This document shows, piece after piece, positions 2,650-49,520 of a stretch of DNA of 64,000 nucleotides. A program made the translations under genes and the position numbers. The notes beneath the pieces were generated by a model. That model made no database searches and was not told the origin of the DNA. It was given only the letters and a program-made list of their open reading frames with translations. Position 1 is the first letter of the stretch. Every line of letters begins with the position of its first letter. Location of the stretch: the IMG/VR virus record IMGVR_UViG_3300019487_000021. The stretch is one strand, 5' to 3'. The stretch comes from a virus. Its lineage: Duplodnaviria; Heunggongvirae; Uroviricota; Caudoviricetes.

Positions 2650-2990
2650 TGTTCCCAAGCAGTCACGCTCGGTCGAGGCAAGGCTGCTGTTAAGCAGCTA
2701 CTCCGTAGAGTTCCTCAACATTGTACGCAGAGTCGTTTGCGTTTAACGTTTTACGCTGATTACGTCAGTCGTCTCTCGCACTGTCCACTGGCCACTCGCA
2801 CGTCAATCAATTCCATTCACCCCCATAGGTGGTTCGTGTGTGAGCTTTGCTAGCATTTCTCACAATGGCAGTGTCTCACAACTGTTGTACCTCTGCCCTA
2901 GACTCAACTTATCATTCGAACCGTGTTGGTGGAGATGCCGAGATTCGAACTCGGGTCTTGTCCGCCTTGCAGCTGCTTCACACAGTGTTA
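2650..2990 (-). ncRNA. ssrA: tmRNA, circularly permuted (two-piece); tag ANDSAYNVEELYGVAA
   Basis: Acceptor piece with T-arm and CATCTCC-A-CCA ends at 2927, upstream of coding piece starting GGGGGTG at 2824 (G3:U70 pair); tag frame 2740-2690 ends in AA-stop. Confidence 0.9.
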
Positions 2991-2994
2991 GGTG

Positions 2995-3002
2995 TATTTA
3001 TA
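2995..3002 (-). promoter_or_regulatory. T4-type late promoter TATAAATA driving tmRNA
   Basis: Exact TATAAATA just upstream of the acceptor piece. Confidence 0.7.
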
Positions 3003-14008: not shown

Positions 14009-14373
14009 ATCTGCGTATTTATAACTTGTTGAAATGGTTTCACAATCACTTCCACAAGTGGACTAAAATGCTGAATGAACAGCTCCTTTTCTTTCTTGTC
14101 AACGAAAAAGAAGAACTTGTGATCTCCTTCCTCATTCACATCAACAATTCCATAAAGGACTCGTCGAGAAATATACGTTTCACCAGAGGATCCGCTTTCA
14201 ATCGAAACGTCCCGAACGACAAGATTGCCTGCAACATCATCCCTCCAAGCGTTCCATGTATTCCAGAATCGTTCGTCGATTCCGTTGACTTCAACGATCT
14301 GTGCATACTTTTGCAGCATATCATGCACGTATCTCAAAGTTTGATCAGTCAAAACGCCATCGTATAGTAACAC
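13999..14373 (-). CDS. hypothetical protein
   Basis: 124-aa ORF with alternative start. Confidence 0.5.
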   Translation of the reverse strand: MLLYDGVLTDQTLRYVHDMLQKYAQIVEVNGIDERFWNTWNAWRDDVAGNLVVRDVSIESGSSGETYISRRVLYGIVDVNEEGDHKFFFFVDKKEKELFIQHFSPLVEVIVKPFQQVINTQMRV

Positions 14374-14451
14374 TTGATCTCCTCATTGTCTTCAAACATT
14401 AATCAAACTCACGGATAATGTCAACCAGGGCAAATACTGGATTCTTCTTCT

Positions 14452-15048
14452 TTAGTGTTTGCCCTTCAAGCCTGTTGGAGGGTTGTGTAGACGAGATGTC
14501 TGTGGTACACGAGCCAGCAAGAACTCCATCTGATGTGCGAGAATCTCGCGGTTCATCAGAATCAGGTGTTCAGCTCGGTTCGGTGCGTACGGCACGTACA
14601 GGAGTTTCATACCTGAATCTTCAGGTGTACGGTTGTCCTTCGCCTTGTTGCAACCACCACAAGACGTAACAGCGTTTGTCCACTTGTCTGGACCGCCCTT
14701 CGACCGTGGGTGGACGTGATCACGTGTAAGGTCCTGTTTGCGGAACAAACCGCCACAGTACGCGCACACGTTATGGTCACGACGGAACAGCGCAGCGTTC
14801 GTCAGCGTTGGGACACGATGGAGATGGTTTGCCTTTGTGTCACCGTCGACAGCGATGATCGTGTTGAGGTCCATGAACGAACGATCCCCTGTCTGACGCG
14901 ACTTGCCGCCGTAAATCGTGAAACCGTCATCGCCGATTGTCCACGCAACTAGTCCTTTTGCGTAGTAATACGCAGCGTCTTCGTACGTGATCCAGCGCAT
15001 TGGTTCGCCAGCTTTGTCGAGTTGCAGAATTTGTGGGTGTTCAGTCAT
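14452..15048 (-). CDS. HNH endonuclease
   Basis: 'CAYCGG', 'TRDHVHPRSKGG', 'NAVTSCGGCNKAK'. Confidence 0.9.
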   Translation of the reverse strand: MTEHPQILQLDKAGEPMRWITYEDAAYYYAKGLVAWTIGDDGFTIYGGKSRQTGDRSFMDLNTIIAVDGDTKANHLHRVPTLTNAALFRRDHNVCAYCGGLFRKQDLTRDHVHPRSKGGPDKWTNAVTSCGGCNKAKDNRTPEDSGMKLLYVPYAPNRAEHLILMNREILAHQMEFLLARVPQTSRLHNPPTGLKGKH

Positions 15049-15125
15049 GATTCCCTCCTATTGATATCCCTATGCTATTATTTAGCGTTCGGACGTGTGC
15101 ATAATACTTAAAGCTACCCCAAAAG

Positions 15126-15458
15126 TCAACCATGTTTTTCCTCCTGCAGTAACTGAAACTTACGCATTGGTTTACGTTCATCACCGTACAACGGTCGTGT
15201 TGCAATTGCAGTATGCCCAGTATTGTAGTCGGGCTCAAAGAACATTTCATGGTCGATTTGGTGACGGTTAAGATAGTCAGCAATCTTCAACAGATCGTGT
15301 TCACTCTTCGCGCCGATCAACACGATGAATGATGTCTCAGCTGGCTTTTGAAAGCGAAAACCAGCTTCCAAAGCTGCATGAGAGGCTTGCACAATCTGTT
15401 GCGGTGTGGACAAGTCCTGCCGCACGAAGATGTACGTGTAAGGTTTCGCCTAGGTCAT
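15126..15458 (-). CDS. Pth2-like peptidyl-tRNA hydrolase family protein with in-frame TAG at codon 3
   Basis: ATG ACC TAG GCG AAA...; 'YTYIFVRQDL...QIVQASHAA', 'HTAIATRPL'; ATG overlaps upstream TGA. Confidence 0.7.
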
Positions 15459-15808
15459 TTTGACACCTCCAGACCGATTTTGATGGCTGACCACATATCG
15501 TCTGGAATTGCATCGCCGTAACGATTACAGAACGCTTGAACGAACGAGCTTTTCGAATTTGACGCTCGTTGTTGGGCGATCCATTTCAGATCACTCATGG
15601 CTCGCGTGTAGCCTTGCCATGCGTCTTTGTAGTATGGGTCGATTTTACGCTCGTTTTTGAACGGCGAAAAGCCGTGTTTCAGATCCTTGGCGCGGAGAAG
15701 GTTGTAGAGAATATGGTCCTTCGCCGTCAACTGTTTCTGTCGAGCGATCTGTTTGTACGCTTCTTGGTACGTGTGAAACTTCTGTTTGTCTTGAAAAATG
15801 AACTTCAT
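15455..15808 (-). CDS. conserved-looking phage hypothetical protein
   Basis: ATG 15808 with AGGAG SD; 117 aa, 'HILYNLLR...GFSP'. Confidence 0.7.
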   Translation of the reverse strand: MKFIFQDKQKFHTYQEAYKQIARQKQLTAKDHILYNLLRAKDLKHGFSPFKNERKIDPYYKDAWQGYTRAMSDLKWIAQQRASNSKSSFVQAFCNRYGDAIPDDMWSAIKIGLEVSK

Positions 15809-15927
15809 TTGCAATCTCCTAATGTCATGGTTAAAGATGTGGAACCGAAACGACAAAGAGATTGCGGAGGATCGCGAGCGCGAACCTACGTGAAACCAGC
15901 TACCTATGCTTTCTTGACACGCTTCAT
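15805..15927 (-). promoter_or_regulatory. putative leader ORF with two amber codons and SD-sequestering hairpin
   Basis: MKRVKKA*VAGFT*VRARDPP...K(TGA); GCAATCTC (15865-15858) pairs with GAGATTGC (15818-15811). Confidence 0.6.
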
Positions 15928-16171
15928 TTGTTTCTCCAAAGTTAAGAACAACGAAACACTACTATATATGCATTCGACATTATGGTCAACTCAATGTGAT
16001 TCGAGTTCGACGATTCTTCGACTAAGAGTACGAACAACGGCCTCTATTCCATGACTTGTCGCTGTAACGGCACGGTTTGATTCATCTCATTTGTGAGACG
16101 TGAATACAAACTCCTGTTTGCTTCTTGGAGGACATTGAGTTCCACACGAAGTTTTTCTATTTCATTCATAA

Positions 16172-17134
16172 CTACTCCAAAATTTGACTGATTGATTGTT
16201 TGTCGTCAATTCGCACGATCGTTTCCGCGAGCAGGCCAGCGATCGAAATTTGACGAACCTTGACCATATTTGACACCATAGGAATCGTGTCTGTTATTAC
16301 GAGCTCGTGCAGCTTGGATCCTGCAATATTGTCTGCGGCTTTTCCTGACAACACTCCGTGTGTCGAATATGCGACGACACGACGAGCTTGGCCCACGTCG
16401 ATCAGCGCGTTTGCCGCTTTAGCAAGCGTTCCGGCTGTATCGACCATATCGTCTATCATGATACAAGTTTTGTCTTTCACGTCGCCGATGATGTTCATCA
16501 CTTCGCTTACGTTTGCCCTGGGGCGCCGTTTGTCGACAATTGCCAGGTCCATGTTATCGAGTTGTTTTGCAATTGCTCTAGCACGAGCCACACCACCAAC
16601 ATCCGGTGAAACGACAATTGGATTCTCATTCATCCAATGTTTATAAATGTCGGCAACAAAAAGAGGAGTGGCGGAAATGTTGTCGACAGGGATTGTGAAG
16701 AAGCCCTGAATCTGTGTTGCGTGAAGATCAACAGTCAAAATGTGACGGATGTCGACGCTCTGCAGCATACCTGCAACAACGTTTGCAGAGATTGGAACTC
16801 GTGAGTATCCCGGGCGTCGGTCTTGTCGTGAATACCCAAAGTAAGGAATGACGGCAATGATTCGTTTGACAGCGGACCGACGAAGAGCATCCGCCATCAA
16901 CATGATCTCCATCAAAGTATCATTTGTTGGAAAGCAAGTCGACTGAAGGATAAAGGCCTTCTTTCCTCGAACGTTGTTTTGAACCTCAACCTTTAGTTCA
17001 CCATCGCTAAACTTGGATACTTCACACCGTCCGATTTGAATTGGACTACCTGTAACTCGTGCGTTGAGGTCCTTTGCAACCGCCTTTGCGAGGAACGGAT
17101 TGGATGTACCAGTGAAGAGAATCGAGTTCGTCAT
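16172..17134 (-). CDS. prs: ribose-phosphate pyrophosphokinase
   Basis: 'FSDGE', '[10 protein letters not shown]', '[11 protein letters not shown]', 'VSPDVGG', 'DDMVDTAGT'. Confidence 0.95.
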
Positions 17135-24033: not shown

Positions 24034-24112
24034 GCTCGAGTAGCTCAGTGGTTTCAGAGCGGCGGTCTCTAAAACCGAATCGGTCGGGGGTTCGAATCCC
24101 CCCTCGAGCACC
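24034..24112 (+). tRNA. tRNA with CTA anticodon (amber suppressor)
   Basis: GCTCGAG acceptor, GCTC/GAGC D-stem, loop CT-CTA-AA, GGGGG-TTCGAAT-CCCCC, ACCA; CATAAATA directly upstream. Confidence 0.85.
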
Positions 24113-24173
24113 AACACTAAGCGCTCAAGACTTGAAACAGACCTTTCACTTTTTACTAGACGGGAGTATTATC

Positions 24174-27501: not shown

Positions 27502-27771
27502 TATAAATAGAGGTACAGTTTGATTTCTTTGGAACTAACTTTGAACTTTGAACATGGAATATGAAGGGTAACGAAATGCAACGCTGTCAATCACTACATA
27601 GCTGGCATCTGAGTGATACGTCACTCGGGCAGGGCTCCATGCGTTCGTATCGATTCGAACGTCCTGAGCAGCCTAACAGCGCCCTTCGTGGAGATCCGAC
27701 CTGGGACTAAAACGGATCTAAGCAGAACAAACACGAAGGGCTCTGCGAGAAATCCAGAGCCCTTCCTTTTT
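27502..27771 (+). promoter_or_regulatory. late promoter plus leader peptide plus terminator/antiterminator at the head of the tRNA array
   Basis: TATAAATA 27502-27509; ORF 27576-27710; 27681-27690 pairs 27732-27741, competing with terminator 27735-27765 + T-run. Confidence 0.7.
27735..27771 (+). terminator. intrinsic terminator (attenuator)
   Basis: GAAGGGCTCTG / CAGAGCCCTTC 11-bp stem + CTTTTT. Confidence 0.85.
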
Positions 27772-29346: not shown

Positions 29347-29423
29347 CAGGGTGTAATGTCAATTGGTAGACGGCCTGTTTTGGAGACAGGAGGTTGGAAG
29401 TTCGAGTCTTCTCACCCTGACCA
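29347..29423 (+). tRNA. trnP: tRNA-Pro(TGG)
   Basis: CCTGT-TTTGGAG-ACAGG, CCA. Confidence 0.9.
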
Positions 29424-29429
29424 TATTAT

Positions 29430-29594
29430 CGGATGTGGCGCAAATGAAGACGGCTCCCCACTAGCGGGAGAGAGGTGGATATGCGACTAAGTCGGTGAGT
29501 TGAGGGATAACCGCTCGAGAGGCCCTTCGACAAGAGTTCCGAAAGAAAGGTGTCTGTATATCTTATGCAGGTTCAAATCCTGTTCATCCGCACC
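29430..29594 (+). ncRNA. tRNA-like RNA with about 90-nt expanded variable region
   Basis: CGGATG/CATCCG acceptor, CTCCC/GGGAG arm, T-arm CAGG-TTCAAAT-CCTG. Confidence 0.5.
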
Positions 29595-29631
29595 CTGTTT
29601 CATCTTATAAGTAATGTATCACTTATAAGAG

Positions 29632-30408
29632 ATGGAAATGATTGTTGTCACAGGTGCTCATGGTTTTATTGGAAGTCATGTTGTCAAAACACTGCAGACG
29701 CGAGGACGTCAAGTAGTATCGATCGATATCGACAACCGAAACACGTTGTTTGAACTTACTGATGTTGAGGCTGTCATTCATCAAGGCGCGTGTGCAGACA
29801 CAACCGAAACAGACGTATCGCGCATGATGGAGTTAAACTATGACTACTCTAAGCGTGTGTTAGAGTACTGTCAGAACATTCCTTTGATCTATGCATCGTC
29901 GGCCGCTGTGTACGGTAACACACCAGGACAGGAACATCCGTTGAATCTTTACGGATGGTCAAAGCTGATGTTCGACGACCTTGTTCGAGCGACTAAACTG
30001 CCACACGTCGTTGGACTACGATATTTCAACGTGTACGGTCCTGGTGAGCATTGCAAAGGACGTATGGCGTCGATGATACATCAACTGTGTGAGCAATACA
30101 AAACAACTGGTAAAGTCAGACTGTTTGAGAGCGGTGAACAACAACGAGATTTCATTCATGTCGAAGATGTCGTGAATGTTATCATGTCCTTTCTCACCAA
30201 TCCTATTGGCGGAATCTACGATGTTGGAACAGGTGTGGCAATATCATTTAACGAATTAGCGCGAATCATCACGCAAGATTCGAGCAATGCAATTGAGTAT
30301 TTTCCGATGCCAGAACAGATCAAAGGAAAATACCAAACATATACACAAGCTGACCTCACGCAATTGCGTCGTGTAGGTTATGCAAAAGACATTCTTGGTG
30401 TAGGCTAG
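29632..30408 (+). CDS. hldD: ADP-L-glycero-D-manno-heptose 6-epimerase-like SDR
   Basis: 'VTGAHGFIGS', 'HQGACADTTE', 'YASSAAVYG', 'PLNLYGWSK', 'LRYFNVYGPGE', 'GRMAS'. Confidence 0.85.
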   Translation: MEMIVVTGAHGFIGSHVVKTLQTRGRQVVSIDIDNRNTLFELTDVEAVIHQGACADTTETDVSRMMELNYDYSKRVLEYCQNIPLIYASSAAVYGNTPGQEHPLNLYGWSKLMFDDLVRATKLPHVVGLRYFNVYGPGEHCKGRMASMIHQLCEQYKTTGKVRLFESGEQQRDFIHVEDVVNVIMSFLTNPIGGIYDVGTGVAISFNELARIITQDSSNAIEYFPMPEQIKGKYQTYTQADLTQLRRVGYAKDILGVG

Positions 30409-30470
30409 TCTGGTTAGTCACTCCGTTTGGGGCGGAGACCACGCAGGTTCGACTCCTGTCACCAAGACCA
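30394..30470 (+). tRNA. trnP: tRNA-Pro(TGG), overlapping hldD stop
   Basis: CTCCG-TTTGGGG-CGGAG, CCA. Confidence 0.85.
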
Positions 30471-30473
30471 ATC

Positions 30474-30498
30474 GTTGCGCAGTAGTAGAGTTACTTCA
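30474..30498 (+). repeat. dispersed element copy 2
   Basis: GTTGCGCAGT-AGTAGA-GTTACTTCA. Confidence 0.8.
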
Positions 30499-30719
30499 TT
30501 TAGTTCGACTCTAAAATTCGCCACAAAGAGCATCGAGGTGTTTTTTGTGGCGAATCGGCCGTGGGGCCAAGCGGGCTCATAACCCGAGCGGGAAACCGCA
30601 TGTTCTCTGCACGTTTAATCTCGATTGATGTTCCTAACAGTCATCCGCCAAGCGTTTATAAGACAAAGTAGCGTCCCACAGCCACGCACACAGAGGTGGT
30701 TTTGTCGTGCTACAAATTT

Positions 30720-30794
30720 CTCCGTAGAGCGTGAGGGTTAGCGTACAACGTTTGGGGCGTTGTGGACAAGATTCAAGTTCTTGTACGGAGACCA
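30720..30794 (+). tRNA. trnP: tRNA-Pro(TGG)
   Basis: CAACG-TTTGGGG-CGTTG, CCA. Confidence 0.85.
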
Positions 30795-41286: not shown

Positions 41287-41361
41287 GGGAGCTTAGCTCA
41301 GCGGTAGAGCAACTCGTTTCACCGAGAAGGTCGTAGGTTTCAATCCCTACAGCTCCTACCA
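41287..41361 (+). pseudogene. degenerate tRNA-Val copy (6-nt anticodon loop)
   Basis: 3' end nearly identical to tRNA-Val 40816-40890. Confidence 0.6.
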
Positions 41362-49142: not shown

Positions 49143-49520
49143 ATGTTTATCCAACTCATGAGCGACAACCCGTTCCGTGCCTGGCGTTACATGTCAGAGG
49201 ATGAAATTGTCACCGATCTACTCACAATGCGTCTCACAAAAGAGGACAAGGAGGCGCTTGTCAAACTTGAATATGATGCTCTTGTAACTGTTCACTGGTC
49301 GTTCGGACGGTATATCAAAGAAACGTATCGCTTGAACGAACCTGATCATCCTCTTGTCGCAAAACGCTCCGCAGATGAAACGGCAGTTCGTCTGATCGAA
49401 CGGGTTTGGGCAACGATCACCAACAAAGAAATACCGATCAAGGACTCCTCAAAGGCTGTTGTGTCGGAGGAGAAAGAAGACATCCACCTCCCATTTATTG
49501 ACTTCTCGATAGACTGTTGA
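49143..49520 (+). CDS. hypothetical protein
   Basis: 'VHWSFGRYIKE.Y.L' motif. Confidence 0.6.
   Translation: MFIQLMSDNPFRAWRYMSEDEIVTDLLTMRLTKEDKEALVKLEYDALVTVHWSFGRYIKETYRLNEPDHPLVAKRSADETAVRLIERVWATITNKEIPIKDSSKAVVSEEKEDIHLPFIDFSIDC

Follow-up and report, generated by a model that had tools for sequence, protein, structure and literature searches.

An early in-frame amber codon in a Pth2-like gene of jumbo phages, and a phage-encoded tRNA(CUA) as its likely reader

The window analysed here, a stretch of 64,000 nucleotides from the ~237-kb genome of a tailed virus of the Caudoviricetes (IMG/VR record IMGVR_UViG_3300019487_000021), carries a gene for a small Pth2-like protein whose frame holds a TAG close to its start (Table 1). 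Read from the upstream ATG, the frame runs ATG ACC TAG GCG AAA CCT TAC ACG TAC ATC TTC GTG CGG CAG GAC and on to a TGA, and the residues after the TAG are A-K-P-Y-T-Y-I-F-V-R-Q-D-L, the valine being encoded by the GTG at 15425. Both the open reading frame called under table 11 and the corresponding database protein (P0002, 99 aa) begin at this GTG, in front of which no purine-rich Shine-Dalgarno sequence is found, the preceding sequence being ACGTACATCTTC. An earlier note on this DNA had described a GGAGG Shine-Dalgarno sequence, an ATG at 15458 overlapping the TGA of the gene before it, and an ACC-TAG followed by continuation in the same frame; every one of these features was found on the minus strand. 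Two relatives (L001 and L004) share the ATGA overlap. Positions 14400-16200 are also covered by a contig (X2, depth 39) that comes from another cave-metagenome sample, of a different study, and shows four differences, none of them within 15126-15458; this independent sample carries the TAG, which is not a sequencing error. A megablast search of the region against cultured phages returned no match. Immediately downstream lies a 30-codon open reading frame (window 15041-15133, minus strand) that has no family match. It begins among the final codons of the Pth2-like gene, overlapping it by ATGGTTGA, and its N-terminal residues, MVDFW.SF.YY, are conserved in L001.

Table 1. Coordinates in the window of the Pth2-like gene, its start region and the tRNA(CUA) gene.
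Feature	Position	Strand	Remarks
Pth2-like gene	15126..15458	-	110 codons, of which codon 3 is the in-frame TAG; stop TGA 15128-15126
Shine-Dalgarno GGAGG	15466..15470	-	7-nt spacer before the ATG
Start ATG	15456..15458	-	overlaps TGA (15455-15457) of the upstream 133-aa ORF (ATGA coupling)
In-frame amber TAG, codon 3 (the gate)	15450..15452	-	next base G
GTG (Val12)	15423..15425	-	start chosen under table 11; inside β-strand 1; no Shine-Dalgarno sequence
Upstream 133-aa ORF	15455..15856	-	coupled to the gate; no Pfam match; phrog_22448 (PHROG class: unknown function)
tRNA, anticodon CUA, encoded CCA	24034..24113	+	ARAGORN; Rfam tRNA 64.1 bits

A homolog search retrieved 60 proteins, most of which begin M-x-x-P-Y-T-Y-I-F. 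In an AlphaFold model based on 35 homologs (pLDDT 90.5, pTM 0.84), β-strand 1 comprises residues 7-13, so that a protein started at the GTG, residue 12, would lose it. The segment PYTYIFVR that follows the TAG is thus the conserved first strand of the Pth2 fold, as had been expected from the letters, and the N-termini of the homologs, the fold model and the placement of the Shine-Dalgarno sequence agree with the earlier note that the true start is the ATG at 15458 rather than the GTG. Searched with Foldseek against the PDB, the model had Pth2 or Pth2-like structures as all of its best 15 matches (E 2e-6 to 9e-4, TM 0.56-0.76), including MJ0051, PH1539, AF2095, human Bit1 and Sulfolobus Pth2. 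The Pfam PTH2 family (PF01981) aligns from residue 9 with a score of 21.1 bits (E 4e-4), below its gathering threshold of 23 bits, and 23 of 35 family members match it at E <0.01.

In Sulfolobus solfataricus Pth2, catalysis depends on a Lys close to the N-terminal loop and on the Asp of a D-x-G-x-T segment. The phage protein shares with Pth2 (PDB 2zv3, 1wn2, 3erj, 1q7s, 1xty) the fold over its full length (TM 0.65-0.76), the motifs R-x-D-L and V-Q-x-x-H-A, and a C-terminal acidic D...T segment, into which the invariant D77 and T87 fit. It differs from the archaeal and eukaryotic enzymes in its identity of only 13-25%, in its Pfam score below the cut-off, and in the residues Gln20-Gln21, which a profile alignment to the solved Pth2 chain 24bt_A places opposite the adjacent Lys-Lys pair of that enzyme and which may reflect a different chemistry or substrate. 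Because the sequence match is weak, we call it a Pth2-fold protein and not a proven Pth2; the modelled fold points to ester hydrolysis of the kind catalysed by peptidyl- or acyl-tRNA hydrolases, with a presumed substrate to match. A further departure from Pth2 is seen in relatives from Xanthomonas and Stenotrophomonas phages (XacN1, Xoo-sp13 and RAS14; L098, L103 and L106), in which the domain forms the C-terminal part of a protein of ~285 residues, fused behind an HD-like N-terminal domain, and the TAG sits at the very start of the fused gene.

The early TAG, whose retention in homologs the earlier note had proposed to check, is indeed kept. The DNA of the closest relative (about 76-78% identical, L001) reads ATG ACT TAG, as does that of L011, and about 25 diverged homologs retain a TAG at codon 3-6; neither a sense codon in these two relatives nor a read error was found, X2 being identical to the window across the gene. 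At the position of the window's GTG both L001 and L011 have GTA, which leaves the closest relative without an internal start there. The glutamine listed at the TAG position of the closest homolog, P0003, was considered as evidence for the amino acid inserted and set aside, since it is the product of a gene call under code 15 and the DNA reads TAG. When the upstream frame was read in 65 loci from assemblies and IMG/VR, representing 45 distinct N-terminal regions, 17 of these regions displayed a Shine-Dalgarno sequence, a start, 2-5 sense codons and a TAG. An SD-like motif precedes the upstream ATG in all 17 of these lineages, and in 13 of them the stretch from the TAG to the invariant Arg is free of ATG, GTG and TTG. 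The TAG is codon 3 in most lineages and codon 4-6 in about a third, and no single residue is kept at codon 2 (T, S, I, L, K, A, H or Q).

Cultured phages repeat the pattern, with an early TAG in nine of ten genes inspected. Written with # for TAG, the N-termini are MT# in Acinetobacter phage ME3, ML# in Ralstonia phage RsoM2USA, MTH# in Serratia phage BF, MAQ# in Pectobacterium phage CBB, MAH# in Erwinia phage Kaldavass, ML# in Salmonella phage Arash, MK# in Xanthomonas phage XacN1, MKK# in Xoo-sp13 and MK# in Stenotrophomonas phage RAS14; the sole exception, Klebsiella phage RaK2, has a plain start. In Serratia phage BF, the entire open reading frame contains no other canonical start. In 25 of 26 lineages a purine comes directly after the gate TAG. 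Among the TAG codons that terminate open reading frames of at least 150 aa in four genomes (n=57), the next base is T in 27, G in 13, A in 12 and C in 5, and the long TAG-ended genes of the window all read TAG-T. Amber suppression in E. coli is promoted by a purine 3' of the codon, and UAGU terminates strongly. Such contexts would fit a leaky gate alongside tight terminators, and we take them as supportive only, given that the lineages are not independent.

Substitution patterns indicate that the frame is under purifying selection (dN/dS about 0.12). Values of 0.11-0.13 were obtained among BF, CBB and Kaldavass, all of which retain the TAG, and between the window and L001 the TAG is kept even though synonymous sites are saturated and dN is 0.15. 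In a maximum-likelihood tree built from 52 distinct domains there are two clades: one of 14 domains, none of which is gated, and one of 38 domains, of which 22 are gated and spread throughout. The history of the gate on this tree takes between four state changes, when only well-supported branches are counted, and nine; the gate either is old and was lost time and again or had several independent origins.

How exceptional the arrangement is within single genomes was examined with a scan for a Shine-Dalgarno sequence, a start, 1-6 codons, a stop and then at least 70 codons with coding bias. The Pth2-like gene is the only credible TAG case in the 64-kb window. Two genomes scanned in full, those of Salmonella phage Arash and Serratia phage BF, likewise yield no other TAG case, and in them the gated gene has its next canonical start 47 codons off or lacks one; all TAA and TGA matches of the scan have a normal start a few codons later. 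Over about 75 related loci the scan returned TAG in 25, TAA in three and TGA in two, and the early TAG pattern is more than chance. A few other genes of the relatives are gated as well. The gene immediately upstream of the Pth2-like gene is gated too in a 257-kb relative (G001), and RsoM2USA has a separate HD-like phosphohydrolase gene with an early TAG of its own (MKS#; L102:2403), homologous to the domain fused in XacN1 (E 6.5e-40). At L006:2615 and L007:2616 (plus strand), the gene just upstream of the Pth2-like gene, which encodes ~120 aa of a family without assigned function, starts ME-TAG or MK-TAG; the Pth2-like gene of L006 lacks the TAG, and the gate is on the neighbouring gene instead. 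The gated upstream gene of L007 has no homology to the window's upstream 133-aa ORF, and tblastn searches of the window with the HD-like domain and with the L006/L007 neighbour family gave no match.

The window also encodes a well-formed tRNA with the anticodon CUA. This tRNA is set apart from the main tRNA array and is 8.6 kb away from the gated gene on the opposite strand, so that within the window only co-occurrence ties the two together. Its best match among the window's 21 other class-I tRNAs is 65%, and its anticodon stem-loop is one base from that of tRNA-Trp, the rest of the molecule being dissimilar; likeness to the phage's other tRNAs does not settle its amino-acid identity. Relatives were searched with an anticodon-loop and T-loop pattern, which can miss tRNAs, and hits were confirmed by ARAGORN. 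Sixteen TAG-bearing genomes were examined, and 14 proved to have a tRNA(CUA), namely the window, seven IMG/VR contigs, BF, CBB, Arash, RsoM2USA, ME3 (own annotation) and XacN1 (PMC5852040), and the two in which none was detected are contigs 74% and 83% complete. The gene and the tRNA are 0.45, 0.6, 0.7, 1, 2.6, 3.3, 3.7, 7.7, 8.6, 13, 14, 40 and 40 kb apart in 13 TAG-bearing genomes and 0.5, 2.3, 4 and 13 kb apart in four ungated relatives, which places ten cases at 0.45-4 kb. The pattern found no match in the incomplete contigs G004, G011 and G005, no tRNA(CUA) was seen in five fragmentary contigs of the ungated clade, and RaK2 has neither gate nor tRNA(CUA). In Arash, the tRNA at L105:2807-2878 (record 49176-49247) is annotated as tRNA-Phe, and its anticodon according to ARAGORN is CUA.

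As a baseline we took five tRNA-rich phages without a tblastn match to the window protein. By the pattern method no tRNA(CUA) was found in four of them (KVP40, T5, Atu_ph07 and phage G). The fifth, Mycobacterium phage Bxz1, has one (recorded as 'tRNA-OTHER'), located 300 nt downstream of gp154 (L187:2751-3510, record 94750-95509), and gp154 turns out to be a distant relative of the window protein (PF01981 PTH2, 30.6 bits). An in-frame ATG TAG directly precedes the GTG start of gp154, and the Shine-Dalgarno sequence suits the GTG better; a gate on this gene is doubtful. Since four ungated relatives carry a nearby tRNA(CUA), gating cannot be the whole reason for the association, and the pairing in Bxz1 means that the link of this protein lineage to amber suppressor tRNAs is wider than the gate. 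The tRNA(CUA) at 24034 is the likely reader of the gate, because TAG-bearing homologs almost always share their genome with such a tRNA.

Several other RNA features were noticed in the window. A permuted, two-piece tmRNA at 2690-2987 (minus strand) matches Rfam RF04321 with 97.2 bits against a cut-off of 47 and was not reported by ARAGORN. The T4-type late-promoter motif TATAAATA occurs at ten window sites against 0.75 expected (e.g., 2995-3002 and 14016-14023 on the minus strand and 27502-27509 on the plus strand), directly before the tmRNA, a tRNA-Gly and the main tRNA array; the perfect copies before the tRNA-Gly and the tmRNA end 7 nt short of the RNA. A one-mismatch copy, CATAAATA, was considered as a late promoter of the tRNA(CUA) and is not relied on, as it ends 1 nt before the tRNA as opposed to 7 nt elsewhere. 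At 41287-41361 (plus strand) ARAGORN further lists a tRNA that it assigns to no type and whose 'anticodon' has two bases (tc), and three copies of tRNA-Pro(tgg) lie at 29347-30794. In the IMG/VR contig of one gated relative (L050), the phage tmRNA adjoins the tRNA(CUA) (L091:1058-1563), ~0.6 kb from the Pth2-like gene.

We consider it probable that translation of the Pth2-like hydrolase is gated by the phage's own amber suppressor, a tRNA presumed to be expressed and charged and to read this codon. Ribosomes would start at the ATG at 15458, most likely coupled to the upstream ORF, and would meet the UAG at codon 3 with fMet-Thr-tRNA in the P site. Where RF1 wins, only fMet-Thr would be made; where the phage tRNA(CUA) decodes the UAG, the complete 110-residue protein would follow, so that hydrolase output would depend on amber-suppressor activity in a genome in which TAG is otherwise a normal stop. 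The earlier note held that the hydrolase is made only when the UAG is read through, and the sequence does call for this in a full-length product; co-occurrence among genomes singles out the tRNA(CUA) as the likely agent, and a limiting RF1, the note's other condition, would be a hypothetical alternative. The inserted residue would fall in a short flexible tail before strand 1, and its identity should therefore not matter. A strong suppressor would be costly, given that TAG ends 17% of the window's genes. In the window and some relatives, a shorter product may also be made from an in-frame GTG or ATG after the TAG.

Four other readings of the locus were weighed against this one. The first, which we regard as improbable and which can coexist with suppressor gating, is a feedback in which Met-Thr-stop acts as a minigene: it would shed dipeptidyl-tRNA, the substrate of the enzyme, and read-through would rise when termination or Pth becomes limiting. 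Termination on two-codon minigenes is poor, and they are toxic to E. coli with a defective pth; the gate is at codon 3 in most lineages, and the enzyme has a Pth2 fold. All of this would suit such a loop, and the recycling by Pth of drop-off during early elongation is established (PMC10192219). However, codon 2 is free to vary, the TAG is at codon 4-6 in about one lineage in three, the same gate occurs in relatives on the HD-like gene and on an unrelated neighbouring gene, the four ungated relatives still keep their tRNA(CUA), and there is no known step leading from drop-off to more read-through. The feedback is compatible with the data and, given the variable second codon and leader length and the presence of the gate in other gene families, not favoured by them, and the specific tie to the lambda bar two-codon minigene, with its drop-off feedback, which the earlier note had put forward, goes unsupported on the same grounds.

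Under the second reading, ATG-ACC-TAG is a short leader after which ribosomes re-initiate at the GTG at 15425, or at the ATG of 'MYIF' in relatives, so that the shorter protein is the functional one and the suppressor is not involved. A start codon does lie 4-9 codons past the TAG in the window, L002, L004 and L007, and it is these downstream starts that gene callers choose. Yet from the TAG to the conserved core no ATG, GTG or TTG is available in the 13 metagenomic lineages mentioned above, nor in BF, Arash, RsoM2USA and ME3, and where a later start exists, the codons between it and the TAG encode the conserved P-Y and vary synonymously. With GTA replacing the window's GTG in its closest relatives, and with that GTG both lacking a Shine-Dalgarno sequence and positioned to delete β-strand 1, we judge re-initiation to be very unlikely.

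Still less credence can be given to the third reading, that TAG is a sense codon throughout the genome (code 15) and the codon discussed here one in-frame TAG of many. A tRNA(CUA) is present, and phages with recoded stop codons are known (bioRxiv 10.1101/2021.08.26.457843), but a gene map of the window drawn from codon usage under table 11 is compact, with 81 genes, small gaps, and stops that are TAA in 36, TGA in 31 and TAG in 14. Genes of 334, 491 and 599 aa are among those ended by TAG, and no pair of same-frame genes split by a TAG was found in these 64 kb of the ~237-kb genome; in Arash, BF and G001, pairs split at TAG are not commoner than pairs split at TGA or TAA. TAG thus still terminates ordinary genes, which argues against genome-wide recoding, and for XacN1 its authors found nothing beyond the phage's 18 TAG stops (PMC5852040). 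The fourth, a pseudogene carrying a recent nonsense mutation or assembly error, to which a single C-to-T change of CAG into TAG and the Q listed for P0003 might have pointed, is refuted by the TAG in the DNA behind P0003, by the second sample (depth 39), by retention of the TAG across saturated synonymous divergence in a frame under purifying selection, and by its recurrence in cultured phages.

Gating by the suppressor tRNA raises the question of what the arrangement would achieve. We lean, as a guess, towards a self-limiting or matching loop that joins the suppressor tRNA to an acyl-tRNA hydrolase: the enzyme would be made in proportion to suppression or would limit its own synthesis by acting on acyl-tRNA, in a manner resembling that of translation-factor genes controlled by the step they act on. 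Three purposes may be envisaged: the enzyme could handle by-products of suppression or of ribosome rescue, a context to which the phage's permuted tmRNA and the relative with a tmRNA beside its tRNA(CUA) and gene belong; it could act on acyl-tRNA and so limit its own synthesis, an option of which the minigene feedback discussed above is one form; or the gate could merely delay expression. A broader scheme, which we offer as speculation more likely wrong than right, is that suppressor tRNAs of jumbo phages with the standard code exist mainly as one half of a circuit with amber-gated enzymes of tRNA ends, that is, the Pth2-like hydrolase and, in relatives, the HD-like phosphohydrolase. The hydrolase would act on acyl- or peptidyl-tRNA, possibly including the suppressor itself, and read-through at codon 3 would report the state of the tRNA pool and set the level of the enzyme, either as a homeostat or as a sentinel against host toxins that block tRNA 3' ends.

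To our knowledge, the suppressor tRNAs repeatedly reported in large phages with the standard code have had no identified target. The study describing XacN1 found none for the two tRNA(CUA) genes of that phage (PMC5852040), and the target proposed here was missed because only the ends of annotated genes were examined. The present analysis names a conserved candidate, the UAG in the first codons of the Pth2-like gene (ORF364 in XacN1), and its pairing with tRNA(CUA), common to many distant jumbo phages, may explain the role of these puzzling tRNAs. It also exposes a systematic annotation error, the gene being unannotated or truncated at its 5' end in Serratia phage BF, CBB, Kaldavass, Arash, RsoM2USA and others; one PHROG family covers residues 40-105 only and appears to have been built from such truncated calls. 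Several of the carriers are cultured, which opens the proposed switch to direct test, and if it operates as suggested it would parallel, in nature, the amber-gated expression systems built in synthetic biology.

A literature search in a limited collection found no description of an early-TAG Pth2-like gene paired with tRNA(CUA), and the closest parallels are partial. Recoding of stop codons is known from Lak, crAss-like and other gut phages that carry suppressor tRNAs and reassign TAG under 'code 15' (bioRxiv 10.1101/2021.08.26.457843). These phages and the present one have in common a standard-code host, a phage tRNA(CUA) and an in-frame TAG in a gene of their own, as well as a proposed post-transcriptional control of timing. 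Here, however, the TAG affects one gene (up to three in relatives) and is always found among the first 3-6 codons, elsewhere TAG serves as an ordinary terminator at a coding density that is normal under table 11, and the gated gene encodes a translation-related hydrolase rather than a structural or lysis protein. The lambda bar minigenes share the form SD-AUG-NNN-stop and a tie to the biology of peptidyl-tRNA hydrolase, but they stand alone, whereas at the present locus the frame runs on through a conserved gene kept by purifying selection, the second codon differs among lineages, and the gate may sit at codon 4-6. The genes prfB (RF2), with its early in-frame UGA, and infC, with its AUU start, offer a third comparison, each being a translation-related gene with an early obstacle that is passed according to the state of the machinery. 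Unlike prfB, the window gene stays in the zero frame and has neither a frameshift site nor an internal Shine-Dalgarno sequence, and the obstacle would be overcome by a dedicated tRNA as reader instead of by a shortage of the gene's own product, with any feedback through the hydrolase conjectural.
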